Shown here in pieces: positions 5,740 to 62,172 of a stretch of 64,000 nucleotides of DNA. Origin of the DNA: an uncultured bacterium (GTDB lineage Bacteria; Patescibacteriota; Doudnabacteria; UBA920); NCBI GenBank assembly GCA_963749445.1, contig CAVVMJ010000010.1, positions 181,738 through 245,737 on the forward strand, written 5' to 3'. The notes under the pieces are model-generated. The model was not told where the DNA came from, did no database searches, and worked only from the letters and a program-made list of their open reading frames with translations. Made by a program: the position numbers and the translations under genes. Positions within the stretch are counted from its first letter, which is position 1, and every line of letters starts with the position of its first letter.

Positions 5740-5872
5740 CTCCAACCACCTCCCCCGCCTGCGGCGGGTACTCCTCCTTAAAAAGGAGGAGAGCTCCGCG
5801 GTATTGCGGATAACTGCGGAGCTTCCCTCCTGCCAAGGAGGGATGTCCCGCAAAGCGGGACGGGGTGGTTGT
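5740..5872. repeat. R1 GC-rich modular hairpin repeat, A-spacer-B palindromic pair
   Basis: CTCCAACCACCTCCCCCGCCTGCGGCGGGTACTCCTCCTTAAAAAGGAGGAGAGCTCCGCGG ... GCGGAGCTTCCCTCCTGCCAAGGAGGGATGTCCCGCAAAGCGGGACGGGGTGGTTG; same modules as copies at 12315, 16248, 29219, 30712, 37884, 40021, 50671, 51806. Confidence 0.85.
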
Positions 5873-7895: not shown

Positions 7896-7902
7896 GTATG
7901 AA

Positions 7903-7972
7903 AAGCTTTTAGCGATTAGCGATTAGCCAGCAAAACTGTATGGCTAAATGCTACTTGCTAAACGCTAAATGC
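7903..7972. repeat. H1 spacer hairpin between rplD and rplC
   Basis: GCTTTTAGCGATTAGCGATTAGCCAGCAAAACTGTATGGCTAAATGCTACTTGCTAAACGCTAAATGC. Confidence 0.8.
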
Positions 7973-7976
7973 TTGC

Positions 7977-8642
7977 TTACTTCTTCTTTTTCTCTTCCTT
8001 AACTTCCGTAATCTTAACAAGCGGTTTTACTACGCCCGTGGAAATAATCCTGACAAGTCCGTTGCGATACCCAGGCACCGCGCCCTTGACTGAAATCAGA
8101 TTTTTTTTGGCGTCAACTTCCACCACTTGTAAATTCTTAACAGTCACTTGTTGTACGCCCATATGTCCGGCCATCCTTAAACCTTTGCGGGTGTGCTGGG
8201 GAAAGCGCTGGCCAATGGAACCCACGCTGCGCGGTTTGTTATGGCCGTGGGTCATGGGAAAACCTTTAAAGCCGTGGCGTTTCATGGCTCCGGCAAAACC
8301 GCGGCCCTTGCCCACGCCAATGGCGTTAACCAGTTCGCCGGCCTGAAAACCGCTGACGTCAATCTTTTGGCCGCGCTGATAAGGCTTGGTGTCGCTGACC
8401 TTAAATTCTGATAAAACGGCAAAAGCACCCAAATCCTTCAAATGTCCCGCAATGGATTTTGATGCTTTTCTCTTTTTACCAATTCCGACTTGCACCGCGC
8501 TGTACTTATCTCTTCCTTCCACGGATTTAATCTGAGTAACTATCATCGGGTCTGCCTGGATTACGGTCACCGGCAAAACCGCCCCGCTCTGGGGATCAAA
8601 ATACTGCGTCATATTCAGTTTTCGTCCGATGAGGAAATTCAT
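7977..8642 (-). CDS. rplC: 50S ribosomal protein L3
   Basis: 221 aa; GRKLNMTQYFDPQSGAVLPVTVIQ and FKGFPMTHGHNKPRSVGSIG match L3. Confidence 0.9.
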   Translation of the reverse strand: MNFLIGRKLNMTQYFDPQSGAVLPVTVIQADPMIVTQIKSVEGRDKYSAVQVGIGKKRKASKSIAGHLKDLGAFAVLSEFKVSDTKPYQRGQKIDVSGFQAGELVNAIGVGKGRGFAGAMKRHGFKGFPMTHGHNKPRSVGSIGQRFPQHTRKGLRMAGHMGVQQVTVKNLQVVEVDAKKNLISVKGAVPGYRNGLVRIISTGVVKPLVKITEVKEEKKKK

Positions 8643-12303: not shown

Positions 12304-12314
12304 ATGGATTATGC

Positions 12315-12374
12315 GCGGAGCATCCTCCCCTGCCAAGGGGAGGTGTCCCGCGAAGCGGGACGGAGGGGTTGGAG
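12315..12374. repeat. R1 terminal inverted repeat (B orientation) abutting stop codon of DUF559 gene
   Basis: GCGGAGCATCCTCCCCTGCCAAGGGGAGGTGTCCCGCGAAGCGGGACGGAGGGGTTGGAG ends at 12374; gene stop begins at 12375. Confidence 0.85.
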
Positions 12375-12725
12375 TCAACCAAGATTTTTCTTAATCTCCT
12401 GTAACACTCCTTCTAAATTTTTTATGACATCCTTATTTTCAAATCTTATAACTTTTATATTCAGCCTTTGTAAATATTCGGTTCTATTTTCATCTTTGGC
12501 GTAACCTTGTTCGGAATCATGAGGACTGCCGTCAAGTTCAACGGCAAGCTTCTTATCGGCGCAATAAAAATCTACAATATACCTGCCAATACCGTGTTGC
12601 CGGCGAAATTTATGGCCCAATTGCTTATTTTTTAAATGATTCCAGAGCCTGGCTTCGGCTGGCGTTAAATGCTTTCTTAAGTCTTTTCTGTAATTTTTCA
12701 GACCGATGATGTTGTTTAACCTCAT
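12375..12725 (-). CDS. DUF559 domain protein (Vsr-like / PD-(D/E)xK endonuclease fold)
   Basis: 116 aa; LTPAEARLWNHLKNKQLGHKFRRQHGIGRYIVDFYC...ELDGSPHD motif set; about 65% identical to 29279..29635; framed exactly by R1 inverted repeats. Confidence 0.7.
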   Translation of the reverse strand: MRLNNIIGLKNYRKDLRKHLTPAEARLWNHLKNKQLGHKFRRQHGIGRYIVDFYCADKKLAVELDGSPHDSEQGYAKDENRTEYLQRLNIKVIRFENKDVIKNLEGVLQEIKKNLG

Positions 12726-12789
12726 ACTCCAACCCCCCTCCCGCCGCTTTGCGGCAGACTCCCCCTTAACAGGGGGAGATGCTCCGCGG
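12726..12789. repeat. R1 terminal inverted repeat (A orientation) abutting start codon of DUF559 gene
   Basis: CTCCAACCCCCCTCCCGCCGCTTTGCGGCAGACTCCCCCTTAACAGGGGGAGATGCTCCGCGG begins one base after the ATG (12725); its GGAG sits in Shine-Dalgarno position. Confidence 0.85.
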
Positions 12790-16247: not shown

Positions 16248-16393
16248 GCGGAGCTTCCCCTCCTTCCCTCCTTGCTGAGGAGGGGTGGATCGCGTTAGCG
16301 AGACGGGGTGGTATTTATCCGCAAAGACTCCAACCACCTCCCCCCTCGACTTCGCTCGGGGTACTCCTCCTTAAAAAGGAGGAGAGGCTCCGC
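16248..16393. repeat. R1 repeat, B-spacer-A pair (gene-less derivative of the DUF559 element)
   Basis: GCGGAGCTTCCCCTCC...GGAGGGGTGGATCGCG...GACGGGGTGGTATTTATCCGCAAAGACTCCAACCACCTCCCCCC...TACTCCTCCTTAAAAAGGAGGAGAGGCTCCGC; between fusA and rpsG. Confidence 0.85.
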
Positions 16394-16438
16394 AGTTGTC
16401 CGTCTCAGTCCGTTCCCAGTCCGTAACAGTCCGCGTAC

Positions 16439-17053
16439 CTATCTCCGCCCAAACCTCGCAAAATGCGCAAACGCCTTATTGGCCTCTGCCATCCTGTGCA
16501 CGTCTTCTCTCTTCTTTATGGCTGCACCGGTGCGGTTGTAGGCGTCCATAATTTCTCCGGCCAATTTTTCCTTCATGGGCGCGCCTTTTTTGGCCCTGGC
16601 CGCGGCCAACAGCCAGCGGATGCCGAGCGTGGTCTTGCGCGGCTCCTGAACTTCCATCGGCACCTGATAGTTAGCCCCGCCGATTCTGCGGGATTTTAAC
16701 TCCATCATCGGGGCGACGTTTTTTAACGCGATATCAAATACCGCTCGGCCGTCCAACTTTTGCGGTGCCGCTGATTTTTGCGGAACTGCAGTATTCCCCT
16801 CCTTTTTAAGGAGGGGCGTCTGCGCAGCAGACGGGGTGGTTGGAGATTTGACTGAAACAGCAACCGGAGCCGCCACGGGCATCGCGGCCATTTTTTTCTC
16901 CACAATCTCCAAAGCGTCGTAAAAAATCCTGCGCGCCACGTTTTTCTTGCCGCGCTGCATCAAATAATTTATAAATTTGGCATACTTGACCGAGCCGAAT
17001 TTCGGGTCCGGCAAAGGCACGTGTTTGTCGTAGCTCCTTGATTTTCTGGGCAT
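16439..17053 (-). CDS. rpsG: 30S ribosomal protein S7 with about 46 aa in-frame insertion partly encoded by an R1 half-repeat
   Basis: 204 aa versus about 156 typical; N-terminal (PRKSRSYDKHVPLPDPKFGS) and C-terminal (KKREDVHRMAEANKAFAHF) S7 blocks flank AMPVAAPVAVSVKSPTTPSAAQTPLLKKEGNTAVPQKSAAPQKLDG. Confidence 0.9.
   Translation of the reverse strand: MPRKSRSYDKHVPLPDPKFGSVKYAKFINYLMQRGKKNVARRIFYDALEIVEKKMAAMPVAAPVAVSVKSPTTPSAAQTPLLKKEGNTAVPQKSAAPQKLDGRAVFDIALKNVAPMMELKSRRIGGANYQVPMEVQEPRKTTLGIRWLLAAARAKKGAPMKEKLAGEIMDAYNRTGAAIKKREDVHRMAEANKAFAHFARFGRR
16801..16864. repeat. R1 half-repeat (B) inside rpsG coding sequence, in frame
   Basis: GGAACTGCAGTATTCCCCTCCTTTTTAAGGAGGGGCGTCTGCGCAGCAGACGGGGTGGTTGGAG. 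Confidence 0.85.
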
Positions 17054-17055
17054 GG

Positions 17056-17130
17056 TTTTAGCTTTTAGCGATTAGCTTTTAGCGATTAGCCAGCCATGTC
17101 TGGCTAAATGCTAACTGCTAAATGCTAACT
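17056..17130. repeat. H1 spacer hairpin (TTAGCG/GCTAAA tandem-repeat arms)
   Basis: TTTTAGCTTTTAGCGATTAGCTTTTAGCGATTAGCCAGCCATGTCTGGCTAAATGCTAACTGCTAAATGCTAA; copies also at 57..130, 1587..1670, 7903..7972, 17553..17632. Confidence 0.8.
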
Positions 17131-17136
17131 TCTTGT

Positions 17137-17550
17137 TTACTTCTTCTTGGCTCCATACTTAGACCGAGAGCGTTTCCGACCGTCAACGCCTAATGTGTCC
17201 AATTTCCCTCTGATGATATGATAGCGCACGCCGGGCAAATCTTTTACCCTGCCGCCGCGGATCATCACCACACTGTGTTCCTGTAAGTTGTGGCCGATGC
17301 CCGGAATATAGGCAATCACTTCCATGCCGTTGGTGAGTTTGACTTTGGCGACTTTGCGCAAAGCCGAGTTCGGCTTTTTGGGCGTGGTGGTATAAACCTT
17401 AAGGCACACGCCACGCATAAACGGCGCGCCTTTGGCAATCCACAAGGTGCGGTTTTTGATTAAGTTGACGCGGCGCAACAAAGCCGGAGCCTTGCTTTTG
17501 GCCTGTAAACTGTGCCTGCCGTGCCTGACTAACTGGTTGATTGTGGGCAT
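17137..17550 (-). CDS. rpsL: 30S ribosomal protein S12
   Basis: 137 aa; [12 protein letters not shown]...[14 protein letters not shown]...[11 protein letters not shown] canonical S12. Confidence 0.9.
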
Positions 17551-17552
17551 TT

Positions 17553-17632
17553 CGTTAGCTTTTAGCGTTTAGCGATTAGCGATTAGCCAGCCATGTTTGG
17601 CTAAAAGCTAACTGCTAAATGCTAAATGCTTT
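17553..17632. repeat. H1 spacer hairpin upstream of rpsL
   Basis: TTCGTTAGCTTTTAGCGTTTAGCGATTAGCGATTAGCCAGCCATGTTTGGCTAAAAGCTAACTGCTAAATGCTAAATGC. Confidence 0.8.
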
Positions 17633-18213: not shown

Positions 18214-18353
18214 AGCAAATCCACGGAGTTTCTCCCCTCTTGACCCATTCGGCAAAGCTCAGGGTCACCCCGAGCTTATCGAGGTGGTGAGGGGAGATGC
18301 CGAAGTAGCAACGAGGCAGAGAGGTTGCATTCAAACCCGACACTCCTTTTTTA

Positions 18354-18737
18354 TCATCTCTGGCACCCCTCAATATTCTTATCCACGTCGTTATTCCAAA
18401 ACTGTAAAACTTTATACCCCTGTTCTTTGGCATAATCCCGTTTGGTCAAATCATAGTCAGAAACCTTTTGCTCGCTATGCTGTCCTCCGTCAAGTTCAAT
18501 CAGTAACATTTTTTCACGGCAGCTGAAATCAAAAATATATGAACCAACCTGCACCTGACGCTTAAATTTTAAATGATAAAACCGCCCGGCGCGCAGGCGG
18601 CTCCATAGCTTGGTTTCCCAAGGTGTTTGGTTTTTGCGGAGATTTTTTGAGTTTGTTAAAAAAGGTTCAGGGATTATGCGATTTTCCATATATTCTGCAA
18701 CCTCTCTGTCTAAAATTTTGGCCGATGATGAACCCAA
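18354..18737 (-). CDS. DUF559 domain protein (third, more divergent copy)
   Basis: 127 aa; HLKFKRQVQVGSYIFDFSC...ELDGGQH pattern parallels the other two; flanked only by R1 fragments (18751..18782 and 18252..18300). Confidence 0.65.
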   Translation of the reverse strand: MGSSSAKILDREVAEYMENRIIPEPFLTNSKNLRKNQTPWETKLWSRLRAGRFYHLKFKRQVQVGSYIFDFSCREKMLLIELDGGQHSEQKVSDYDLTKRDYAKEQGYKVLQFWNNDVDKNIEGCQR

Positions 18738-18822
18738 ACAAAATTTTAGACATCTCTCCTCAAAAGGAGAGAAGCTCCGCGGAAAACCCTTTCGTCATCC
18801 CAATCGGCGACCAATCACTGAT

Positions 18823-23256: not shown

Positions 23257-25065
23257 TTAATGGCCGAAAAATCCTCTGGCTAAACTGTCCGGCAATAAAC
23301 AAAGGCTGATGTTTTTATCTTTGCAAAACTTTTTAATTTCAGGGTCGCGCACACTGCCGCTTGTGGCTATTATAGCACAAATCCCGGCTTTTGCCAAAAC
23401 TTCCACCCCGTCCACGAACGGGAAAAAACTGTCGCTGTAGGCCACCGCGCCTTTGGTTTGATGTCCCGCGTCCAGGGCCCGTTTGATGGCCAACTGGCAG
23501 CAGCCGACTCTGTCCTGCTGCCCCACACCGTTGCCGATTAACATCCCGTCTTTGACCAAAGTGACAGTGTTGCTGTTGCTGGTGGAACCGATTGCCCAGG
23601 CCAAAAGCATATCGGATTTTTGCTGATCGGATAATTTGCCGATAAACTCCGGCCGAGGGTTCCCCTCGGTTTCCGAACGGCTCCGGTCCGAGGGGAACCC
23701 TCGGGTCAAATCCAAAACAAAATCATAATTCGGCTGGGCCAAAAACCCGCCGCGCACATAACGGAACCGACGATGGCTATCCGGCGAGTTTTTTGACAGA
23801 TTCCCCAGCGCGGGGTTTACCAAAAACCGGCACTTGTCGCCTTTGCGTTTTAACATTCTGACCGCTCCTTCGGTAAAGGATGGAGCAATAATCCCATCAA
23901 GCAACCTCCGCGGCTTGCCCGCCGAAGCTTCAGCGAAGGTGGGAGCTTTCCCCTCCTTTTCAAGGAGGGGTCCGGCCGAAGGCCGGGGGGTGGTTGGAGC
24001 CATCCGATGTGTAAGCAATATTTCCGCCAATTTTTCGTCAACCAAAAAATTTACCATCACCAGCCCGCCAAAAATCGCGCGCAAATCCCCTTCCAGCATT
24101 TTTTGGATGGCCGATGACGGCGTATCGGAAACCGCCGCACCGCACGGGTTGCCGTGCTTTACCCCCAAAGCTATATTCATTATTCCCTTCCCCCTCTGGG
24201 GGAAGGTGGCCGTGAGGCGGCCGGATGAGGGTTTTATTACGGATTGCAACAAAGTGGGATTGCAGTCAAACCCTGCCGCAATGTGCGTTATGGTCTGCAG
24301 CAATCTGTCCACGTCCGCCCAGTTGTTGTAACTTACCGGCATGCCGGCCAATAATCGGAATTTCGATAGCGATAATTCATCACTATCTGAAATCGCATAC
24401 AATCCCGCCGGCGTCTGGCATGCATTCTCGCCATATTTACAAATTGCGGCGCGGTGACCAACCATTCCTTCGTATTCGCCCGCTCCGTGATAGCGCGCGG
24501 ACGACAAACAGTACTCCGCCACAATAAATTCCGCTTTAGCTGCAAGCTGGTCCAAAAATTTTTCTTTATCAGGCTTGCCGTTTTTTAACCAGCTGATGAC
24601 TGCCACCCTGTCGTCCGGATCACAAACGACGATTCTTCTTCCCTTGGCCGCGCTCCGGAGCATTGTCGGCCCGCCAATGTCAGTCTTTTCGATAACAGCT
24701 TCCCTGGCCTTTGCCGATCCGACTTCCGATTTTCCGATTTTTCCGATTTCTTCCGACAACGGATACAAATCCACGCACACCAAATCTATCCACGGGATTT
24801 TTAATCGATTTAATTCCTGCCGATCTTCATCGGTATCCCGCGCCAAAAGCCCGGCGTGGACTTCGCGCGACAACGTGACTACGCGATGACCCAAAATCGC
24901 CTTACCGCCGGCCAAAGAAGCCACATCAGTCACTTTAATTCCTGCGTCTGACAAAGCTTTGGCTGTCCCTCCGCTCGCCAAAATTTTAAATCCCAAATCC
25001 GCCAACTCTTTGGCAAATTCCACAATCCCGTCTTTATTATAAACCGAAATCAGTGCGGTTTTCAT
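23257..25065 (-). CDS. purH: bifunctional AICAR transformylase / IMP cyclohydrolase, with several in-frame repeat-encoded insertions
   Basis: 602 aa; N-terminal MGS-like domain (MKTALISVYNKDGIVEFAKELADLGFKILASGGTAKAL) and AICARFT domain; about 80 aa longer than typical because of insertions at 23653..23706, 23941..24000, 24170..24235, 24711..24760. Confidence 0.9.
   Translation of the reverse strand: MKTALISVYNKDGIVEFAKELADLGFKILASGGTAKALSDAGIKVTDVASLAGGKAILGHRVVTLSREVHAGLLARDTDEDRQELNRLKIPWIDLVCVDLYPLSEEIGKIGKSEVGSAKAREAVIEKTDIGGPTMLRSAAKGRRIVVCDPDDRVAVISWLKNGKPDKEKFLDQLAAKAEFIVAEYCLSSARYHGAGEYEGMVGHRAAICKYGENACQTPAGLYAISDSDELSLSKFRLLAGMPVSYNNWADVDRLLQTITHIAAGFDCNPTLLQSVIKPSSGRLTATFPQRGKGIMNIALGVKHGNPCGAAVSDTPSSAIQKMLEGDLRAIFGGLVMVNFLVDEKLAEILLTHRMAPTTPRPSAGPLLEKEGKAPTFAEASAGKPRRLLDGIIAPSFTEGAVRMLKRKGDKCRFLVNPALGNLSKNSPDSHRRFRYVRGGFLAQPNYDFVLDLTRGFPSDRSRSETEGNPRPEFIGKLSDQQKSDMLLAWAIGSTSNSNTVTLVKDGMLIGNGVGQQDRVGCCQLAIKRALDAGHQTKGAVAYSDSFFPFVDGVEVLAKAGICAIIATSGSVRDPEIKKFCKDKNISLCLLPDSLARGFFGH
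23941..24000. repeat. R1 half-repeat (B) in frame inside purH
   Basis: GGGAGCTTTCCCCTCCTTTTCAAGGAGGGGTCCGGCCGAAGGCCGGGGGGTGGTTGGAG encodes APTTPRPSAGPLLEKEGKAP. Confidence 0.8.
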
Positions 25066-28521: not shown

Positions 28522-29218
28522 CGATTGCCCTCCTTGGCAACTGGATCCCTCTTCTGCATCAGCAAAAGAGGATACTACACCGCACAACGACGGCCTTAGA
28601 ATTGGACGGGTCAGGGCTTATCCCAATCTTTCCCATGCTCTCAACCGTACTTGGTCGTGAACTGAATCGGGACATGCCCTAATCAGACATTACATCCACG
28701 ATCGTTCCGCAATTGAGCACATTTGCCAACTTGGTAAGTCGGCGGGAAAAACTGAGCACCCCTTTTCTCGGAGAATGAGGTATTATTGCATCCGAGCCTT
28801 TGACCCGTAATCTTTTGAGCATTGCTGCTCAGAAAATTTTATCCAATTCTTTTAGATAAAAATTCCTAAGCACCATCCTCTGCCCAACAAAATACCTAGC
28901 CTTCTCGTTTTGGCTAGGTTGGTGTTTGTTCTAAATTCCGTTTAACTTTTTCCCCTTCAAACCCCACCTAGCCCGTCCCAAACATAGCCCTTAACAAAAA
29001 GGACCGGGCGGACGACAATGGTGGTGGAAAGGTTTTTATACATTCTTGTACTGGTTAACTGATACAAGTATACAACAAACTGGCAAATTGTCAATATATT
29101 TATAAATTTGGCTTAAATAAAAGACTAATTTTATATGATGGCGTAATACTTAATGAAAATTTATTGGTTATCCCCAATCACGAACAATATATTCGGCTAT
29201 CCTGTTATTCGGTTATAC

Positions 29219-29278
29219 GCGGAGCTTCCCCTCCTGCCAAGGAGGGGTGTCGCGCGAAGCGTGACGGGGTGGTTGGAG
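29219..29278. repeat. R1 terminal inverted repeat (B) abutting stop of DUF559 gene
   Basis: GCGGAGCTTCCCCTCCTGCCAAGGAGGGGTGTCGCGCGAAGCGTGACGGGGTGGTTGGAG. Confidence 0.85.
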
Positions 29279-29635
29279 TTATTGCAAATGTTTCCCGATT
29301 TCAGCCAACACCCCTTCTAAATTTTTAATTACATCGCCGTTTTGAAAACGGATAACCTTTATGCCTTTGCTCTCCAAATATCTTGCGCGTTCCTGGTCTT
29401 TTGTGTAGCCCTGTTCCGTATCGTGAGGCGAACCATCAAGTTCTATGGCTAATTGCCTGCTTGGGCAATAAAAGTCCAGGATATAATAACCAATGCCGTG
29501 CTGCCGCCTGAATTTTACTCCCAATTGGTTATTCTTGAGATGCACCCAAAGTCTGGCTTCTGCCGGGGTTAAATGCTTGCGTAGTTCTTTCCGGTTATTT
29601 TTTGAGCCTATTAGATTATTCAACCTATCAGTCAT
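29279..29635 (-). CDS. DUF559 domain protein (Vsr-like endonuclease fold), second intact copy
   Basis: 118 aa; LTPAEARLWVHLKNNQLGVKFRRQHGIGYYILDFYC...ELDGSPHD; framed exactly by R1 inverted repeats as at 12375..12725. Confidence 0.7.
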   Translation of the reverse strand: MTDRLNNLIGSKNNRKELRKHLTPAEARLWVHLKNNQLGVKFRRQHGIGYYILDFYCPSRQLAIELDGSPHDTEQGYTKDQERARYLESKGIKVIRFQNGDVIKNLEGVLAEIGKHLQ

Positions 29636-29698
29636 GCTCCAACCCCCTCCCCCGCCTTCGGCGGGTACTCCCCCTTGACAGGGGGAGAGGCTCCGCGG
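29636..29698. repeat. R1 terminal inverted repeat (A) abutting start of DUF559 gene
   Basis: GCTCCAACCCCCTCCCCCGCCTTCGGCGGGTACTCCCCCTTGACAGGGGGAGAGGCTCCGCGG. Confidence 0.85.
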
Positions 29699-30655: not shown

Positions 30656-30711
30656 GGATTATTTTTTAAGATTTACTATAGTGAATCTGCTTTTCAGATG
30701 CACGGATATCC

Positions 30712-30840
30712 GCGGAGCTCCCCTCCTAATATAGGAGGGGTGTCCTGCGAAGCGGGACGGGGTGGTATTATCTGTGCCGGTATTTTACCACCTCCCCGCC
30801 CTGCGGGCGGTACTCCTCCTTTTCAGGAGGAGAGTACTGC
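30712..30840. repeat. R1 repeat B-spacer-A pair (gene-less)
   Basis: GCGGAGCTCCCCTCCTAATATAGGAGGGGTGTCCTGCGAAGCGGGACGGGGTGGTATTATCTGTGCCGGTATTTTACCACCTCCCCGCCCTGCGGGCGGTACTCCTCCTTTTCAGGAGGAGAGTACTGCAG. Confidence 0.85.
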
Positions 30841-36532: not shown

Positions 36533-39500
36533 TTAAACCACAAAATTTATTAAGCGGTCAGGCACAAAAATCACCCGCCTGATATTTTGGGTTCCGACGA
36601 TTGCCACAGCCTGCTGTTTAACTTGATTCTCATCGCTTCCCGGCGACACCGTAATGCGGCCTTTGACTTTGCCGTTGACCTGCACCACGATTTCAATTGT
36701 GGCGTCAACGATTTTTGCCGGGTCAAACGCCGGCCAGCTTTCCAGCTGGAGCGATTTTTTGCCTCCGATGATTGAATTTAGTTCTTCTGCCAGATGCGGC
36801 GCGAACGGATGTAACAATTTTAGAAAAATTTTAAAATCTTCCTTCGAAATATTTTGGCCAAAAGCTTGAATATTTTTTAAATTTAAATATTTTTCAAACT
36901 TTGGATCTTTTGATTTAATCATTTCTTCTCGGGTAATATAAATTTCGTTCATAAACACCATAAGACCGGATACGCAGGTGTTAAATCGAAAATTTTCTAT
37001 ATCCTCTTCGACTTTTTTTATAGTTTTATTCAAAGCTTTCTCAACTTGTCCGTCAGTAAAATTCATTACATCGTTATCTTCCATCGCCTTTAGACTTAAA
37101 CCGACCTGATATACCTTATCCAAAAATCTTTTGACCCCGACTACGCTTTTGTCGTTCCAGGCGATGGTGTCCTCGTGCGGACCCAAAAACAACTCAAACA
37201 TGCGCAACGTGTCCGCGCCGTGCGAGGCTACAATATCCTGCGGATTGACCACGTTGCCGCGGCTTTTGGACATTTTTTCGCCGTCCGCAGCCAAAATTAT
37301 GCCGTGAGGCACGCGTTTAACATACGGCTCCCTTGATGTAACCAATCCTTGATCAAACAAAAATAAATTCCAAAACCGGCTGTAAAGCAAATGCAAAGTC
37401 GTGTGCTCCATGCCGCCAAAATAAACGTCCACCGGCGTCCAGTATTTTTGTTTGCTGATGGACGCGAATTCTTTTTTGTCTTTTGGATCGATATACCTTA
37501 ACCAATACCAACTGCTACCTGCCCATTGCGGCATAGTGTTGGTTTCTCTTTTTGCCGGCGATTTGCAATTCGGACATTTTACATTAACCCAGTTTGATAT
37601 TGCGGCCAATGGCGATTCTCCTGTTCCTGTCGGCTGGTAATTTTTGACCGGCGGGAGTTTTACCGGCAAATCCTTTTCGGCTACCTCCACAATACCGCAT
37701 TTTGGGCAATGAATAATCGGAATCGGCTCGCCCCAGTAGCGCTGGCGGGAAAATACCCAATCACGGAGTTTATACTGGACAGTCGCTCTGCCGAATTTTG
37801 CTGCCATTTTGGGAATTGCATCTTCTGACTTCATTCCGGTAAATTCACCGGAATTAATCAAAGCACCATAATCCGCAACGGCTCCGACCACCTCCCCGCC
37901 TGACGGCGGTACTCCCCCTTGAAAAGGAGGAGAGCTCCGCGTGACATCCGAGAATAACTGCAGAGCTTCCCCTCGCTTCTTTAAGGAGGGGTGGACGCGA
38001 AGCGAACGGGGTGGTTGGAGACACAACTTGCTTAATTGGTAAACCGTATTTCTTCGCAAACTCAAAATCCCGCTCATCATGCGCCGGCACGGCCATAATC
38101 GCGCCGGTGCCATAACCCCAAAGCACGTAATCCGCCGCCCAAATCGGGATTTCTTCTTTTGTTGCAGGATTAATCGCCTTAATACCTTTTAACTCCACTC
38201 CGGTTTTTTCCTTACCTTCTGATGAACGATCCATTTCCGATTTTTTCTTTGCCTTTTCTACATATTCCTCAACTTCTTTGTAATTTGATCCGCCTTGGCG
38301 GATGAAATTTTCTGTCAACGGATGTTCCGGTGCCACCACCATATATGTCGCGCCGAAGATAGTGTCCGGCCGCGTGGTAAAAACTTTGATTAACGGCAAG
38401 ACGGCGGCCAAAACTTCCGGTTCTTGCTCGGCGCGAAAATGAACCAGTTGCCCTGCTTTTCTAGTGATAGGCGCGTTCAAAACTTCCGACAGTTGGGCAG
38501 CTTGATCGTCGGAAATTGCATCGTCGTTGGGATCATGTAAAATTGTAATTGAACCGGCTTTATTTTTAATCGCCGAAAAATCAAAACTCCATTTAAAATT
38601 TTTTTGAAAAGGCCTGGGTGGTCTTTAAAATTTGGGCTGACAAAACCGCCGACCAATACCAGTCCAGCGATTTTTGCCTGTAATTTTTCCAGAACTTTCA
38701 TCGCCACCACCGTTCCCAAACTATGGCCGACTAAAATTGTATTTTCGCCAAAACGGCAATTTTTCAAAACAAAATTAACCTGCGCTTCTTCACTGGGATT
38801 AGTCGGATTCGGCAAGGCCGGTATATCCACTTTCATACCTTTAAATTCCAATTGGCTTTTTAGCCAAGGATAGAATCTGGTTTCCGGCGTTTCATTCCAA
38901 CCGTGCAAAATTACGTAATTATGTTTTGCGTTTAGGGTAAAATTAATTTCCGCGCCCACAGACTTGCCAATCCAGTTTTCCTGTTGGAGCTTAACCGCTT
39001 CCGGCCACTCGGGCAGATGTTTTAATCCTTCCAAAAGTTTTTCCGCATACGCAGTAATTCTTAAATACCACTGGCGCAATTCTTTTTTTTCAACGACTGT
39101 GCCGCAGCGCTCGCATTTGCCGTCTATGACTTCTTCGTTAGCCAAACCGGTTTTGTCTTTCGGACACCAATTAATCAAACCTGTTGCCTCGTAGGCCAAT
39201 CCTTTTTTAAAGAATTGCAAAAACAGCCATTGTGTCCATTTATAATAATTCGGGTCTGTGGTATTTATTTCCCGCGACCAATCAAAACTTAAACCCCACG
39301 ACTGCATTTGTTTTTTGGCATTTTTGATATTTTTCGCCGTGGTTACCGCGGGCTGGACGCCTTTTTTATGGCATAATTTTCCGCCGGCAAACCAAACGCG
39401 TCCCAGCCGATGGGAAACATAACCTCATAGCCCCGCATACGATGATAACGAGCATAAACATCCGCGGCCACGTACGGCCGCAAATGCCCCATATGCAAAC

Positions 39501-39639
39501 CCTCGCCGCTGGGATATGGAAATTCCACTAAAACATATTTTTTCGGCTTTTTGGCAAAATCCGCGGCCTGAAAAATTTTCTTGGTTTGCCAAACCTTTTG
39601 CCACTTGGCCTCAATTTTTTTGTGATTATACTTTTCCAT
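36533..39639 (-). CDS. leuS: leucyl-tRNA synthetase with an embedded YdeN-type serine-hydrolase domain and an R1-repeat insertion; reading frame broken by about three apparent frameshifts
   Basis: ORFs 39343..39639 (HMGH), 38477..39307, 37854..38480 ([24 protein letters not shown] editing motifs) and 36533..38113 (KMSKS: EKMSKSRGN; anticodon-binding and C-terminal domains) are collinear with LeuS; junctions at A6 (39351), T7 (about 38605) runs and inside the R1 element. Confidence 0.85.
37884..38030. repeat. R1 repeat A-spacer-B pair inside leuS coding sequence
   Basis: CCGACCACCTCCCCGCCTGACGGCGGTACTCCCCCTTGAAAAGGAGGAGAGCTCCGCG...GAGCTTCCCCTCGCTTCTTTAAGGAGGGGTGGACGCGAAGCGAACGGGGTGGTTGGAG; encodes [20 protein letters not shown]... 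in the same relative frame as the TatD copy. Confidence 0.85.
38420..38932 (-). other. YdeN/RBBP9-type alpha/beta serine hydrolase domain embedded in LeuS between the WIGKS motif and the CP1 editing domain
   Basis: [24 protein letters not shown]...[18 protein letters not shown]...LVGGFVSP...[11 protein letters not shown]...QLVHF aligns along its length with B. subtilis YdeN (YIIHGY...WFPWLKKRL...YLVAHSLGCPA...ILVSGF...SKDDQIVPF...HGGHF): Ser-Asp-His triad conserved. Confidence 0.7.
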
Positions 39640-39691: not shown

Positions 39692-40666
39692 TCAGATGTT
39701 AAATAGTTTTTTTGCATTTTTGGTCGTCGATTCCGTAACTTCTTTAATTGACAAACCTTTTATCTCCGCAACCTTATCGGCCACAAACCTTACATAGCTC
39801 GGCTCGTTTCTTTTGCCTCGATGAGGCGCCGGCGATAAATACGGGCAATCGGTTTCCAGTAAAATTTTATCAAGCGGCGCGAGTTTTACCAACTTTTCCA
39901 TATTGCCGGTTTTGTCAAATGTGATTATTCCGTTAAAGCTGACATACGCGCCGCGGTCGAGGAATTTTTGGAGATATTCTGGACTTCCCGTGTAACTGTG
40001 CACCTCAAACCTCAAACCGGCTCCAACCCCCTCCCCGCCCTTCGGGCGGTACTCCCCCTTGTCAGGGGGAGAGGCTCCGCCTATATCCTCGGTCAACTGC
40101 GGAACTTCCCCTCCTGCCAAGGAGGGGTGTCCCGCGGAGCGGGACGGGGTGGTTGGAGTTTTTTCCTCATCAAGTATCTCCAGTAAATCATCATAAAGCG
40201 ACTCATCACCTTTTGCCGGGCGACTGTGGACTACTAAAACTTTATTTAATTCTTTTGCTAATTTCACTTGCTCCCGAAATGCAGCTTTTTGTTTATCTTT
40301 GACTTGCTGATGGTCGCCATCCGCAGGAAACCGATAATAATCCAGCCCGCACTCCCCTATCCCGACAACTTTCGGGTTTGTCGCTATACTTTGGTATAGC
40401 GCTTCGTCAAAATGCTCTTCGCGGGTAAGAAAATGCGTTTCTTCTTCATCAACGTATTGGGAATGGGTATGCTCGGGATGCAAACCGACAACCGCGTAAA
40501 TCCCCTCTTTAAATTGATTAGCCAATTCCACGGCCTCTCGTGACGTGTCTATTTGCGACCCGACGTTTATGACCCAAGTATCATTATCAAGCGCCCGCTG
40601 CAAAGCTTCTTTGGCATCGCCCTTAAACGCGCGAAAATTCACGTGAGCGTGGGTGTCAATCAACAT
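39692..40666 (-). CDS. tatD: TatD family hydrolase with about 50 aa in-frame insertion encoded by an R1 pair
   Basis: MLIDTHAHVNF, GIGECGLDYYR, VVHSR, ETDCPYL motifs; 324 aa versus about 260 typical. Confidence 0.85.
   Translation of the reverse strand: MLIDTHAHVNFRAFKGDAKEALQRALDNDTWVINVGSQIDTSREAVELANQFKEGIYAVVGLHPEHTHSQYVDEEETHFLTREEHFDEALYQSIATNPKVVGIGECGLDYYRFPADGDHQQVKDKQKAAFREQVKLAKELNKVLVVHSRPAKGDESLYDDLLEILDEEKTPTTPSRSAGHPSLAGGEVPQLTEDIGGASPPDKGEYRPKGGEGVGAGLRFEVHSYTGSPEYLQKFLDRGAYVSFNGIITFDKTGNMEKLVKLAPLDKILLETDCPYLSPAPHRGKRNEPSYVRFVADKVAEIKGLSIKEVTESTTKNAKKLFNI
40021..40158. repeat. R1 repeat A-spacer-B pair, in frame inside tatD
   Basis: CTCCAACCCCCTCCCCGCCCTTCGGGCGGTACTCCCCCTTGTCAGGGGGAGAGGCTCCGC ctatatcctcggtcaactgc GGAACTTCCCCTCCTGCCAAGGAGGGGTGTCCCGCGGAGCGGGACGGGGTGGTTGGAG; encodes KTPTTPSRSAGHPSLAGGEVPQLTEDIGGASPPDKGEYRPKGGEGVGAG. 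Confidence 0.9.
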
Positions 40667-50401: not shown

Positions 50402-51793
50402 TTAATAATGCTCTTTATAATATTTTAGCATATCTTCAAAATAATCGTAAGTGATGGCGGTGCGGATTTTTTTCATTAGGTTTAGATAAAAACGCAGGTT
50501 GTGCATTGTGGCCAGGCGGGTGCCGAGCTGTTCACCGGTGGCAAATAAATGCCGCAGATAAGATTTGGTGTGGTTTAAACACAAGTAGCAATCGCAAGTG
50601 TTGTCTATGGGGGTAAAATCTTCTTTGTATTTTTCCAGGCGGATGTCGATGGTTTGGTAGCCTTCTACAACTCCAACCCCCTCCCCCCGCTTCGCGGGAT
50701 ACTCCCCCTTGTCACCCCTCGACTCCGCTCGGGGTGACCCTGAGCGGTAGCCGAATGAGTCAGGGGGAGAGGCTCCGCGTTTGTTCGAGGATATACGCGG
50801 AGCTTCCCCTCCGAGCTTGGGAGGGGTGGCCGCGCCAGCGGCCTGTTCGACTTCGCTCAAGGCCGCCCTGAGCCCAGCCGAATGGGCGGACGGGGTGGTT
50901 GGAGTCGGAATATTTTTTGCCGCGATATAAAGCCTTCCATGCCTCGCCTCCCTTGTCGGAATAACGCAATCAAAAGTATCGCAGCCGCGCGCCGTACCCT
51001 GGACAATATCGTAAGGCGTGCCTACGCCCAAAAGATGTTTGGGTTTTTGTTCCGGCAAATGCGCTATTGACCACTCCACGGCTTTCATCATTTCTTCAAA
51101 CGGCTCGTCAACCGTGGCTACGCCGCCGATGGCAAATCCTTCAAAACCAAAATTCGCCATCGCTTGGGCGGAAATTTTACGCAAGTCCTCAAAATTCGAA
51201 CCCTGAACTATACCCCAAAGTTTTTGTCCGGAGTTGATGGGGTCGCCGTGCTTCATAATATTTAAATGTTCGCGGATGGCGCGCTCGGCCCAGCGGTTGG
51301 TCAGCTCCGTGGAGATTTTACTTTTTTCATACTCAAACGGCACGCCGGAAAAATCATCCAAAATTAAAGCGATGTCGCTGCCCAGGTTGGCCTGGATTTG
51401 AATGGATTTTTCCGGCGATAAAATTTCCTGTTTGCCGTCCAAATCAAAATTAAACAGCACCCCGGCTTCCATTACCTTTTTAAATTTTGCCAGTGATTGC
51501 ACCTGAAATCCCCCGCTGTCAGTAAATATCGGCCCTTTCCAGTTCATAAATTGGTGCAAGCCGCCGGCTTTATAAATCAGTGCGTCGCCCGGACGTTGCC
51601 ACAAGTGGTAAGTATTAGCGAGTATCATTTCCGCGCCCCAAAATTTTAACTCCTCGCTCGTAACCGACTTAACCGTCCCCCTCGTCCCAATAGGCAAAAA
51701 CGCCGGCGTATGCACATCCCCGTGCGCGGTATGTATTATGCCGTTTCTTGCGGCTGATGAGGAATCTTTTTTTTGGATGTCGAAATAAGGCAT
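50402..51793 (-). CDS. tgt: queuine tRNA-ribosyltransferase with 78 aa in-frame insertion encoded by an extended R1 element
   Basis: 463 aa versus about 375 typical; FLPIGTRGTVK, DSGGFQ, DCVIPTR, CDCYLC zinc site all present; insertion NIPTPTTPSAHSAGLRAALSEVEQAAGAATPPKLGGEAPRISSNKRGASPPDSFGYRSGSPRAESRGDKGEYPAKRGEGVGVVEG. Confidence 0.9.
   Translation of the reverse strand: MPYFDIQKKDSSSAARNGIIHTAHGDVHTPAFLPIGTRGTVKSVTSEELKFWGAEMILANTYHLWQRPGDALIYKAGGLHQFMNWKGPIFTDSGGFQVQSLAKFKKVMEAGVLFNFDLDGKQEILSPEKSIQIQANLGSDIALILDDFSGVPFEYEKSKISTELTNRWAERAIREHLNIMKHGDPINSGQKLWGIVQGSNFEDLRKISAQAMANFGFEGFAIGGVATVDEPFEEMMKAVEWSIAHLPEQKPKHLLGVGTPYDIVQGTARGCDTFDCVIPTREARHGRLYIAAKNIPTPTTPSAHSAGLRAALSEVEQAAGAATPPKLGGEAPRISSNKRGASPPDSFGYRSGSPRAESRGDKGEYPAKRGEGVGVVEGYQTIDIRLEKYKEDFTPIDNTCDCYLCLNHTKSYLRHLFATGEQLGTRLATMHNLRFYLNLMKKIRTAITYDYFEDMLKYYKEHY
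50671..50904. repeat. R1 repeat, extended A-X-B form, in frame inside tgt
   Basis: CTCCAACCCCCTCCCCCCGCTTCGCGGGATACTCCCCCTTGTCACCCCTCGACTCCGCTCGGGGTGACCCTGAGCGG...GAGGCTCCGCG...GCGGAGCTTCCCCTCCGAGCTTGGGAGGGGTGGCCGCGCCAGCGGCC...GGACGGGGTGGTTGGAG. Confidence 0.9.
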
Positions 51794-51805
51794 AAAGAAA
51801 TTGAT

Positions 51806-51956
51806 GCGGAGCCTCCCCTCCTATTCCAAGAATTTCATTAGAACATAGGAGGGGTGGATCGCGAAGCGAGACGGGGTGGTATATAAATTGCCGATAACTA
51901 CCACCTCCCCCGCCTGCGGCGGGTACTCCTCCTATTCTAGGAGGAGAAGCTCCGCG
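51806..51956. repeat. R1 repeat B-spacer-A pair immediately upstream of tgt
   Basis: GCGGAGCCTCCCCTCCTATTCCAAGAATTTCATTAGAACATAGGAGGGGTGGATCGCGAAGCGAGACGGGGTGGTATATAAATTGCCGATAACTACCACCTCCCCCGCCTGCGGCGGGTACTCCTCCTATTCTAGGAGGAGAAGCTCCGCG. Confidence 0.85.
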
Positions 51957-51971
51957 ATTTTGCTCATTAAC

Positions 51972-52225: not shown

Positions 52226-54487
52226 TTATCTGTCAAAATTCCGTCTCGGGGGCCTGCCGCTCGAAGAGTCCGAGCCACGTCGAGGACCAAAGGATGGGCG
52301 CCGCGGGCCGCGGGGGCCGTCAAAACCGCGGTCGTTGGCGGAAGCCGCCAACTGTTCCGCTGTAGCGGCAGAGGCGAACGGTTTGTGGGTCAGATTGATC
52401 CGGCCCTGGTCGTCAATTTCGCTAACCTGCACTTTTAACGTATCCCCGACTTTGACCACGTCTTCCACTCGGCCTACGCGATAATTTGCCAATTGCGATA
52501 TATGCACCAAGCCTTCTTTGCCGGGCAAGACTTCCACAAACGCGCCAAAATCCATAAGGCGGGTAACCTTGCCTTCGTAAATTTCCCCGGCCTGGACTTC
52601 CTTAACAATATTCTGAATCCACTCCACGGCTTTTTTGGACATTTCCGCGTCCGTGGACGTAACCATCACCAGCCCGCTGTCTTCTATATCTATTTTCACG
52701 CCCGGACAATTGGCAATAATTTCGTTGATGATTTTGCCGCCGGCGCCAATGACTTCGCGGATCTTGTCGGGTTTAATCATGAATGATGTTATGCGAGGGG
52801 CGTAAGGAGACAAATCCGGCCGCGGCGCGGCAATGGCTTCCTTCATTTTGCTGATAATGTGAATGCGCGCGGGCTTGGCCTGCTCCAAAGCTTTGGCCAA
52901 AATATCCGCCGACAAACCCTTGAGCTTCATATCCAACTGAAGTGCCGTTACTCCCGTTTCCGAACCCGTAACTTTAAAATCCATATGCCCGTTAAAATCT
53001 TCTATGCCCGCGATGTCCGTGAGCACTTTGAATTTTTCCGGATGTTCTTCGTCCATTACCAAACCCATGGCGCAGCCGCCGATAATTTCTGTAATTGGCA
53101 CGCCGGCGTCCATTAAAGCCAAAGTGGAACCGCAGGTGCTGGCCATAGATGTAGAACCGTTAGACGACATAATCTCCGATACTAATCTCATCGTATATGG
53201 AAAAGTTTCCTGCGGCGGCAAAACGACTTCCACCGCGCGCTCGGCCAGCATACCGTGGCCGATTTCGCGGCGGCCCGGGCCGCGCAGCGGAGCGACTTCG
53301 CCAACAGAGTAACCCGGCATATTATAGTGGTGGATGTAACGCTTGGTGCGGCCTTCGGTGGGGTCTTCCATACCGTCCAAAGTCTGTTCGTCGCCTTTGC
53401 TGCCCAAAGTCACAACCGTTAAAGCCTGGGTTTCGCCGCGGGTAAACAAAGCACTGCCGTGCGTGCGGGGAAGGACGCCGACTTCGCAGGTAATCGGCCG
53501 GGTTTCGGTAAGCTTGCGCCCGTCCACGCGGCGTTCCTTTGTTAAAATCTGCTTTTGCTGATATTTCTTTAAAACTTTATCCACGGCCTTGGCCGCGTCT
53601 TTTTCCACGCTTACGCCTTCAATTTCCCCCAGCGCTGATTTAACGGCTGCCGTAATTTCTTCAGTCAGTTTTTTGATGTTATGCTCGCGCAGCTCTTTGC
53701 CCGTTACATAAATCGCGGCGTCCATTTTATCTTCGGTCAAAAGTTCATTAACTTTATCCATTACGGCCGGGTTGGGCAAAACCGTAATCGGCACTGATTT
53801 TTCTTTGCCGACCTGTTTGGCAAATTCCAACTGGCATTTTACCAGTTCGCCCAAAAACGGCTGCGCGAATTTGATGCCTTCCACAATTTCTTCTTCCGTA
53901 ACCAGCTTAGCGCCCATTTCCACCATTATAATATGTTCGCCCGTGCCGCAAACCACCAAATCCATTGTGGATGTTTCCTGCTGTTTGTGGGTTGGGTTGA
54001 TAATATATTTGCCGTCAACTTTGCCCACGCGAACGCCTGCCACGGGGCCGTCAAAAGGCACGTTAGAAATGGCCAAAGCCATTGAGCAGGCGTTAACCGC
54101 CAGCATATCCGGCTCGTTTTCGCCGTCAATGGACAAAACCATTGCCGTTACCTGCAAATCATTGCGCATGCCGTCCGGAAACAGCGGGCGCAGTGTCCGG
54201 TCAATAACGCGTCCTTTTAAAATCGCGTCGTCCGTTGCCCGGCCTTCGCGCTTAATCCAGCGACTGCCTTTGATTTTTCCGGCCGCGTAAAGCCGCTCTT
54301 CGTAATCCATCAAAAGCGGGAAGAAATCAATTCCTTCCCTGGCCTTGTCGCTCATTATCGTGGTGGCTAAAACCACCGTGTCGCCCACGCGCGCCAAAAC
54401 CGCGGCGCTGGCCTGCCCGGCTAATTTGCCGGTTTCAAAACTAAAATCGGCGTCACCGATTTTTACACTAATCTTTTTTGCTTCCAT
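52226..54487 (-). CDS. pnp: polyribonucleotide nucleotidyltransferase with Arg/Gly-rich C-terminal tail
   Basis: 753 aa; two RNase PH domains, KH (GPGGKIINEI-like) and S1 domains in order; tail GPRGPRRPSFGPRRGSDSSSGRPPRR. Confidence 0.95.
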   Translation of the reverse strand: MEAKKISVKIGDADFSFETGKLAGQASAAVLARVGDTVVLATTIMSDKAREGIDFFPLLMDYEERLYAAGKIKGSRWIKREGRATDDAILKGRVIDRTLRPLFPDGMRNDLQVTAMVLSIDGENEPDMLAVNACSMALAISNVPFDGPVAGVRVGKVDGKYIINPTHKQQETSTMDLVVCGTGEHIIMVEMGAKLVTEEEIVEGIKFAQPFLGELVKCQLEFAKQVGKEKSVPITVLPNPAVMDKVNELLTEDKMDAAIYVTGKELREHNIKKLTEEITAAVKSALGEIEGVSVEKDAAKAVDKVLKKYQQKQILTKERRVDGRKLTETRPITCEVGVLPRTHGSALFTRGETQALTVVTLGSKGDEQTLDGMEDPTEGRTKRYIHHYNMPGYSVGEVAPLRGPGRREIGHGMLAERAVEVVLPPQETFPYTMRLVSEIMSSNGSTSMASTCGSTLALMDAGVPITEIIGGCAMGLVMDEEHPEKFKVLTDIAGIEDFNGHMDFKVTGSETGVTALQLDMKLKGLSADILAKALEQAKPARIHIISKMKEAIAAPRPDLSPYAPRITSFMIKPDKIREVIGAGGKIINEIIANCPGVKIDIEDSGLVMVTSTDAEMSKKAVEWIQNIVKEVQAGEIYEGKVTRLMDFGAFVEVLPGKEGLVHISQLANYRVGRVEDVVKVGDTLKVQVSEIDDQGRINLTHKPFASAATAEQLAASANDRGFDGPRGPRRPSFGPRRGSDSSSGRPPRRNFDR

Positions 54488-61992: not shown

Positions 61993-62040
61993 AGTCGTAT
62001 TTTAAATGATAAATATTTGATTTTAATATAGATGCCATCC

Positions 62041-62172
62041 CGGAATTTTTCAAGCTTGAGGATGTTTTCAGTCTTGAAAAATATCCGGGATCCAGATTTT
62101 TGCTTCTACTGGATCCCGGATATTTTTTACGGCTGCTGATATCCCAACGCGTAAAAAATTCCGGGATGACAA
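62041..62172. repeat. R3 hairpin repeat, tandem pair
   Basis: CCGGAATTTTTCAAGCTTGAGGATGTTTTCAGTCTTGAAAAATATCCGGGATCCAGATTTTTGC...GGATCCCGGATATTTTTTACGGCTGCTGATATCCCAACGCGTAAAAAATTCCGGGATG. Confidence 0.75.

Follow-up and report, generated by a model that had tools for sequence, protein, structure and literature searches.

The tgt gene of an uncultured Doudnabacteria member (Patescibacteriota; contig CAVVMJ010000010.1) carries a GC-rich palindromic repeat, here designated R1, within its coding sequence. Very probably this is a real in-frame insertion of a selfish element which is tolerated by the enzyme, in the manner of the Rickettsia palindromic elements (RPEs). The analysis covered a stretch of 64,000 nucleotides, which will be referred to as the window. 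In it, tgt is an open reading frame (ORF) of 463 amino acids on the minus strand (50402..51793) encoding a queuine tRNA-ribosyltransferase (Tgt), as identified by Pfam family PF01702 and by alignment to solved structures. R1 lies on the same strand at 50671..50904, comprises 234 bp or 78 codons, and is read as Tgt residues 297-374. These coordinates, together with the in-frame position, had been given in an original prediction made on this DNA and were exact.

R1 opens with CTCCAACC at 50671, closes with GGTTGGAG at 50904, and extends from the second position in codon 297 as far as the first in codon 375. It has a GC content of 68% compared to 47% for the whole window, and it is bordered by terminal inverted repeats of 12 nt (92%). 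As RNA it forms a closed multi-branch fold with seven hairpins (-147 kcal/mol, z = -7.5 against shuffled sequences). The original prediction had taken R1 for a single 234-bp unit. Its repeat nature was borne out, but the element is a composite consisting of a 138-bp palindromic core and two nested 48-bp hairpin modules, S1 and S2, which are direct repeats of each other; all three lengths are multiples of three.

Read along the coding strand (minus), the element begins with a terminal inverted repeat CTCCAACCACCCC (50892..50904), read as TPTTP, a terminus also present in the copies in TatD, LeuRS, S7 and PurH described below. Module S1 (50844..50891, minus; 48 bp, 16 codons), delimited by its repetition in S2 and by the fold, is followed by the inner part of arm A (50796..50843, minus), which holds two hairpins, GGCCGC/GCGGCC and CCCCTCC/GGAGGGG, as well as one half of the central stem, GCTCCGCG. 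The 16-nt loop in the centre of the palindrome (50780..50795; TATATCCTCGAACAAA on the coding strand) has similar counterparts in other copies. The inner part of arm B (50762..50779, minus) contributes the other half of the central stem, CGCGGAGC, and the 5' side of a CTCCCCC/GGGGGAG hairpin, in the loop of which module S2 is inserted (50714..50761, minus; 48 bp, 16 codons). The outer part of arm B, together with the second terminal inverted repeat (50671..50713, minus), ends at the coding-strand 3' terminus with ...GGGGGTTGGAG, read as GEGVG. A hairpin with a nested module, as formed by S2 in tgt, recurs at 18224-18290. This architecture would be obtained if two further 48-bp hairpin modules had nested into a 138-bp unit made of two inverted hairpin-bearing arms.

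The host frame is free of stop codons throughout R1, whereas each of the five other frames contains one to three. Simple arithmetic on the base composition of the element gives a probability of about 6% that a random insertion of this size is both in frame and stop-free; we therefore interpret the in-frame state as the outcome of survival under selection and not as a property of the insertion process. Frame-preserving insertions alone would then survive in conserved genes. Since the length of R1 is divisible by three and the host frame contains no stop, the element is presumably translated as a 78-residue loop rich in Ala, Gly, Ser and Pro, and the fact that the core and both modules keep the frame is the main argument that ribosomes read through it. 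Of the 87 residues of the enlarged loop, 78 are derived from the repeat, as had been predicted.

The enzyme itself appears complete. Tgt residues 14-460 match the full-length Pfam TGT domain (PF01702, 4e-130). In the alignment to the solved structure 10fb_A the match splits in two, with chain residues 10-281 corresponding to query residues 12-291 and chain residues 285-359 to query residues 382-456, so that approximately 87 residues replace a turn of three residues. The insert is thereby placed in a beta-hairpin turn between the DCVIPTR segment, which contains the catalytic Asp, and the zinc subdomain, exactly where it had been predicted from the letters. It is in this turn that R1 would have landed. 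Two alignments, one with 28 and one with 93 orthologues, show no variation at residues D92, D146, D275, C400, C402, C405 and H431; the catalytic Asp and the CxCxxC...H zinc ligands are thus retained in the insert-bearing protein, in agreement with the earlier claim that these motifs are undisturbed. D275 is aligned with residue 280 of the Zymomonas mobilis chain, which we take to be the catalytic nucleophile.

In the AlphaFold2 model the insert lies between the strands 287-293 and 377-383 with a predicted local distance difference test score (pLDDT) of about 35. The inserted sequence, which includes the peptides AALSEVEQAAGAATPPK and GASPPDSFGYR, consists of Ala, Gly, Ser and Pro to 55% compared to 24% for the rest of the protein, and of hydrophobic residues to 12% compared to 34%. 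These values suggest that the insert is probably a disordered loop, as had been proposed. It may occupy a permissive, exposed turn; the range of loop lengths among orthologues (7 to 98 residues, see below) is as expected for such a turn.

R1 is a dispersed repeat. Related copies are found at roughly ten places in the window (besides tgt at 5740, 12.3k, 16.3k, 18.2k, 29.2k, 30.7k, 37.9k, 40.0k and 51.8k), and at least five copies are intragenic, four of them in frame (Tgt, TatD, S7 and PurH) and one breaking the frame. The canonical 138-bp form, which served as the reference for the core in tgt, is inserted in frame into the gene for a TatD-family hydrolase (R1 at 40021..40158, minus; ORF 39692-40666). 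It consists of two arms with two GC-rich hairpins each, a GCTCCGC/GCGGAGC stem and a centre of 16-18 nt; it is closed by the same CTCCAACC...GGTTGGAG ends and folds as a palindrome with z = -5.7. The hydrolase contains about 49 extra residues in comparison to PDB entry 2gzx_A, and the same site is likewise occupied in the Doudnabacteria metagenome-assembled genome (MAG) represented by locus L082, which also holds L001, one of the tgt loci discussed below. Ribosomal protein S7 (204 amino acids, ORF 16439-17053, minus) contains an intact single arm in frame at 16786-16846 (SPTTPSAAQTPLLKKEG), lying within an insert of approximately 40-45 residues relative to solved S7 structures (3gty_S). In PurH (AICARFT/IMPCHase, 602 amino acids, ORF 23257-25065, minus), an R1 arm and a second small hairpin, read as FAEASAGKP, are inserted in frame at 23906-24000, exactly where the match to the AICARFT Pfam profile breaks. 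This small hairpin is itself dispersed in the loci L003, L005 and L067.

The lone frame-breaking exception is the copy in the leucyl-tRNA synthetase gene (LeuRS), which is present as four ORF pieces at 36533-39639 (minus). An R1 copy of 139 bp at 37882-38020 in the editing domain shifts the frame, and a second frame break occurs at an A-run (AAAAAAG) near 39343. Frameshifting, assembly indels, a split gene or a pseudogene could each explain the break-up of LeuRS. Within LeuRS we also observed a segment resembling serine hydrolases of the YdeN/RBBP9 type (residues 132-224 of ORF 38477-39307; 1uxo_A, 2e-13).

These copies bear on the question of whether the repeat in tgt is read at all. It might be removed from the transcript or bypassed by the ribosome, or Tgt might be made as two polypeptides; the extremely structured RNA would suit such a mechanism, and the 139-bp copy in LeuRS separates two frames, so that split or frame-shifted products may exist. 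Nevertheless, we consider an untranslated R1 improbable. Removal gives no reason why 138, 48 and 48 bp are all divisible by three, nor why the host frame alone is free of stops, and the frame is kept as well in TatD, S7, PurH and genes of other genomes. The insert shows no characteristics of an intein or a self-splicing intron: Pfam detected the TGT domain alone in Tgt and no intein domain, and Rfam scans, introns included, yielded no family for R1 or its arms at E <= 1. A weak hammerhead HH9 match (51736-51801; E = 0.083), which falls well short of the gathering score, was taken as chance, and no terminator-like signal was found on the coding strand inside the insert.

Comparison with orthologues, a check suggested along with the original prediction, demonstrated that the boundaries of the insertion coincide with those of the repeat. 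The nearest Tgt proteins belong to Patescibacteria, and several bear the label Candidatus Doudnabacteria. Delimited by HGRLY and EGY, the loop is 7 to 98 residues long in a set of 118 orthologues; most orthologues, at 78-86% identity, have 7-14 residues here and no insert, compared to 87 in the window. A loop of at least 20 residues was present in 34 of the 118, but since the insert formed part of the query, this list is biased to insert carriers. Several types of long loop with distinct peptide signatures were distinguished, and the DNA pieces encoding them are, in at least two cases, themselves dispersed in their own contigs. In two related genomes (L001 and L003) R1 is present at the identical nucleotide of tgt, after AAAAATATYCCG, and in the same orientation. 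A third (L005), in which the Tgt backbone is 93% identical to that of the window, has another, related palindrome at a distance of three nucleotides, and in P0056 R1 occupies a different junction of tgt, representing a separate event. The other repeat types represent further separate events, and this loop is thus a recurrent landing site; structural permissiveness of the turn, the A/T-rich run that precedes it, or both might account for the recurrence. At the end of the protein, small hairpins CCCGAGCGAAGTCGAGGGGT (L005 4198-4217, L006 2776-2795), related to part of the S module, encode C-terminal Tgt tails (...PSEVEG), so that repeats extend gene ends too.

A neighbour-joining tree of Tgt with the insert masked scatters the R1 carriers among insert-free sequences and had led us to assume four independent insertions at one site. 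This interpretation was withdrawn in view of polynucleotide phosphorylase (PNPase) and of the composition of tgt itself. PNPase, which is encoded next to tgt, shares 88-89% identity between the window, L001 and L003, compared to 69-77% identity to two insert-free genomes. In a sliding comparison, tgt of the window resembles that of L005 at 86-96% over nucleotides 240-780 but no longer does so at the insertion region, where L001 and L003 are the sequences it resembles; the glycyl-tRNA synthetase (GlyRS) shares no more than 51% identity with its L005 counterpart. The tgt gene is thus a recombinant mosaic. The PNPase identities and the mosaic make a single ancestral insertion more economical than repeated hits, and the most economical reading is that R1 inserted once in the ancestor of the window genome, L001 and L003 and has been kept in frame since. 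The R1 copy in tgt is therefore probably old, being common to two related genomes, and not the result of a recent event. Following this insertion in the common ancestor of the window genome and its two Doudnabacteria-like relatives, the window copy would have gained both S modules, L003 a nested hairpin, a flank duplication and a second element, and L001 would have lost five terminal bases, with recombination later swapping parts of tgt among lineages. In the related loci PNPase is of similar length (746-764 amino acids in L001, L003 and L116); in the window its C-terminal tail (52226-52400) is encoded by DNA of 66% GC and is rich in Arg, Gly and Pro (RGFDGPRGPRRPSFGPRRGS...).

Between insert carriers, the Tgt backbone has a dN/dS of 0.07-0.12 at a synonymous divergence of about 1.3, so that tgt has remained under strong purifying selection while carrying R1. 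The first arm of the insert behaves differently: between L001 and L003 its dN/dS is approximately 0.8 with a dS of 0.26, based on 21 codons only, and on these codons dS is roughly five times lower than in the flanking tgt sequence. The low dS suggests that it is the DNA, and not the peptide, which is constrained or homogenised, so that selection may act on the DNA hairpins. A phmmer search with the canonical 48-residue R1 peptide against 1.84 billion proteins gave only three hits at E <= 1e-3, from which we conclude that the peptide is not a conserved protein domain, and a word-indexed protein search with the same peptide returned no match, no candidate sharing enough five-residue words.

Alternatively, the extra segment might be an ancestral, lineage-specific loop or domain with a function of its own, its likeness to a repeat being secondary. 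The retention of the insert in frame in three related genomes across the synonymous divergence of about 1.3 and the many orthologues with expanded loops at this position would agree with this. However, the R1 DNA also occurs between genes and in unrelated genes, orthologues at 78-86% identity lack the insert, the inserts of relatives comprise several different repeat types, and the peptide is not conserved (omega of approximately 0.8). An ancestral domain is therefore largely refuted already and has become very improbable. The finding that had been named beforehand as speaking for it, namely relatives with the same 78 amino acids but no repeat-like DNA, was not obtained: the DNA is a dispersed repeat and the peptide is not a conserved domain.

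Several observations weigh against an RPE-like, translated insertion and should be considered together. No target-site duplication was detected at the copies in tgt, TatD and LeuRS or at 5740, nor at the orthologous insertions in L001 and L003, and no known transposase linked to R1 was found. Translation of the insert is inferred from the preservation of the frame, the AlphaFold2 model is of mediocre quality (mean pLDDT of 70.8), and the mosaic nature of tgt blurs the view of a single ancestral insertion. The exact Tgt protein was not found in the public collection, so that no independent copy supports the assembly; in a metagenome scan with the upstream tgt flank the one match was an unrelated ABC-transporter-like gene, which was regarded as chance and thus likewise provides no independent copy of this allele. 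Finally, the two frame breaks in LeuRS raise the possibility of assembly indels in the window sequence.

The last two points would also fit an insert-bearing tgt that is an artefact, either a repeat-induced chimera or a collapsed repeat, and multi-copy repeats are indeed prone to misassembly. An indel error, however, would not yield an intact frame of 463 codons through a 234-bp insert. Both flanks continue the Tgt frame and are collinear with orthologues, R1 occupies the identical nucleotide of tgt in independent assemblies (P0008, with five contigs, among them an NCBI MAG and Logan runs, as well as P0009 from two JGI samples), and the private nested modules of the tgt copy were not found elsewhere as such. 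An artefact is hence hardly credible. Equally hard to credit is a decaying pseudogene that is open by accident, for although tgt is dispensable in many bacteria and this genome tolerates a frame-broken LeuRS, the backbone dN/dS among insert carriers is 0.07-0.12, all catalytic and zinc residues are conserved, and the ORF is full-length with a strong Pfam score.

The R1 arms are not restricted to ORF-less repeats. All nine ORFs with a DUF559 domain (PF04480) that were examined, three in the window and six in loci of Bacteroidota, Proteobacteria and Doudnabacteria, are bracketed on both sides by inverted arm ends. In the window, the unit at 29217..29698 (minus) contains a DUF559 ORF (29279-29635) bracketed exactly by R1 arms and is a candidate autonomous or partner unit. 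A second unit at 12313..12789 (minus) contains the ORF 12375-12725 between R1 arms, and a third at 18221-18782 has different arms with the same architecture and a 16-nt inner inverted repeat. The three ORFs encode 116-127 amino acids, and their start and stop codons abut the arms; the R1 arms have GGGGTGGT/ACCACCCC ends. The same bracketing was observed in loci of Hymenobacter, Burkholderiales, Gammaproteobacteria and Bacteroidetes (L007, L049, L075, L095, L102). Across phyla the DUF559 proteins are 48-55% identical while the arm signature is identical.

Permuted R1 copies, in which the right arm is followed by an AT-rich spacer of 17-20 nt and the left arm, are located between genes at 51842-51963, directly upstream of tgt, as well as at 16278-16404 and 30703-30834. 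Their layout corresponds to a DUF559 unit minus its ORF. Inward-facing arm pairs without an ORF are common, with non-conserved spacers that are always 10-50 nt long, and an uninterrupted palindromic nuclease target with abutting arm ends was not found among them. The sole ORF bracketed by R1 arms encodes DUF559 and not a known transposase. The association between DUF559 and the arms is strong but correlative; DUF559 is a candidate for mobilising the arms or for homing into them, or it might merely shelter between them.

To follow the family beyond the window, the arm was defined by a signature of 27 bases (CCAACCACCCCG, a variable hairpin, then ACCCCTCC-loop-GGAGGGG). At least 108 matches were obtained in genome contigs, megabase contigs and an isolate genome included, from at least eight phyla (Bacteroidota, Pseudomonadota, Acidobacteriota, Actinomycetota, Verrucomicrobiota, Planctomycetota, Spirochaetota and Patescibacteria), compared to a calculated chance expectation of less than one match even for a GC content of 70%. 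Across 51 different stem sequences the stem of the variable hairpin is preserved. The arm, 45-60 bp long, appears to be the unit of conservation and also inserts alone, as in S7; outside Patescibacteria it is mostly solitary (45-55 bp), whereas in Patescibacteria it is paired into the 138-bp palindrome. Tandem arrays of arms occur at L012, L049 and L095. Of 13 arm matches in other Patescibacteria contigs, eight lie inside long ORFs that continue through them in the same orientation and frame; KsgA, GatB, DUF6580 and TatD are among the hosts. Outside the candidate phyla radiation, in-frame arms were found in a ValRS-type synthetase of Chloracidobacterium (L112) and in a dihydroorotase-type amidohydrolase (L076). 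The signature was detected just once in phage contigs, which does not support a phage as vector. The view of the original prediction that an RPE-like event has taken place in an unrelated lineage is thus retained, but the repeat is not specific to that lineage.

A second, unrelated repeat family is present in the window, consisting of AT-rich, apparently intergenic palindromes of TTAGCG/GCTAA heptamer-like units (43-129, 1593-1678, 7902-7988, 17044-17148, 17541-17632). Another AT-rich palindromic repeat at 62030-62172 (GGATCCCGGATATTTTT... motifs) contains internal inverted copies and has no relation to R1.

More speculatively, the DUF559 nuclease might mobilise the R1 family or propagate it by homing. 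We tentatively propose that R1 is the non-autonomous form of a so far undescribed class of mobile elements, spread across phyla, based on arms, partnered by DUF559 and remodelling core proteins of Patescibacteria, although we would not wager on this proposal as a whole. If true, it would represent a system resembling REPIN/RAYT elements (repetitive extragenic palindromic (REP) sequences in inverted pairs with a REP-associated tyrosine transposase) or a homing-type system, built on a different enzyme. R1 and the modules nesting in it would routinely remodel Tgt, TatD, S7, PurH, aminoacyl-tRNA synthetases, GatB and KsgA, and would thereby continually supply new surface loops to genomes otherwise regarded as streamlined. 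In any case, DUF559 offers a testable candidate for the enzyme responsible for a hairpin repeat which is conserved in at least eight phyla. In the literature, of which our coverage was incomplete, no description of R1, of DUF559-flanking repeats or of in-frame repeats in candidate phyla was found, and the candidate nuclease association appears to be undescribed so far.

The colonisation of conserved genes by in-frame palindromic repeats was treated as nearly unique to Rickettsia. Its density in this Patescibacteria genome is high, with four in-frame cases and one frame-breaking case per 64 kb and a ribosomal protein among the hosts, and in related lineages repeats of several types have entered one and the same Tgt loop on repeated occasions. 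Such inserts affect the annotation and the protein-length statistics of candidate-phyla genomes and might serve as natural insertion-tolerance maps for essential enzymes.

Among the known systems, free-standing genes for homing endonucleases of the PD-(D/E)xK or Vsr-like type resemble the R1-DUF559 units in that a small nuclease gene is centred in a palindrome. The units differ in having neither an intron nor an intein as host, and their nuclease activity is only predicted. With miniature inverted-repeat transposable elements, or MITEs, R1 shares its small size (138-234 bp), terminal inverted repeats, strong secondary structure, high copy number and the occasional in-frame fusion with host ORFs. 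In contrast to classical MITEs, a target-site duplication is lacking at four junction pairs, nor could R1 be linked to a parent insertion sequence carrying a recognised transposase. REP and REPIN sequences are likewise short GC-rich hairpin repeats occurring singly or as inverted pairs, and in REPIN-RAYT systems, too, a small gene is flanked by inverted repeats and far outnumbered by copies without an ORF. However, the gene flanked by R1 arms encodes DUF559, with a Vsr-like PD-(D/E)xK fold, in nine of nine cases, whereas that of REPINs encodes RAYT, a Y1 HUH transposase. REPs are extragenic by definition, whereas many R1 copies are intragenic and read through.

The closest precedent for the insertion in tgt are the RPEs of Ogata et al. 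(2000, 2002), which, as summarised in a 2024 review on prokaryotic MITEs (PMC10969869), are palindromic repeats found in frame in conserved Rickettsia genes. The review also reports in-frame fusions for intragenic ERIC, BOX, QMITE1 and MITEs of Anabaena, and it highlights Rickettsia for how frequent they are there (PMC10969869). Like R1, RPEs are dispersed palindromes of about 140 bp which are inserted in frame into unrelated conserved genes, are read as an extra peptide at positions tolerated by the protein and have hit several genes of one small, reduced genome. R1 differs in its GC content of 68% and its modular hairpin arms, a distinction drawn from composition and architecture and not from an alignment to the RPE consensus. 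Rickettsia genomes are AT-rich. Furthermore, R1 modules nest within one another and R1 arms bracket the DUF559 gene; the arm signature, present in at least eight phyla, is not confined to Rickettsia; and the host is a Patescibacteria lineage in place of an intracellular alphaproteobacterium. The insert in tgt thus behaves as an RPE but, by sequence, composition and distribution, is not one.

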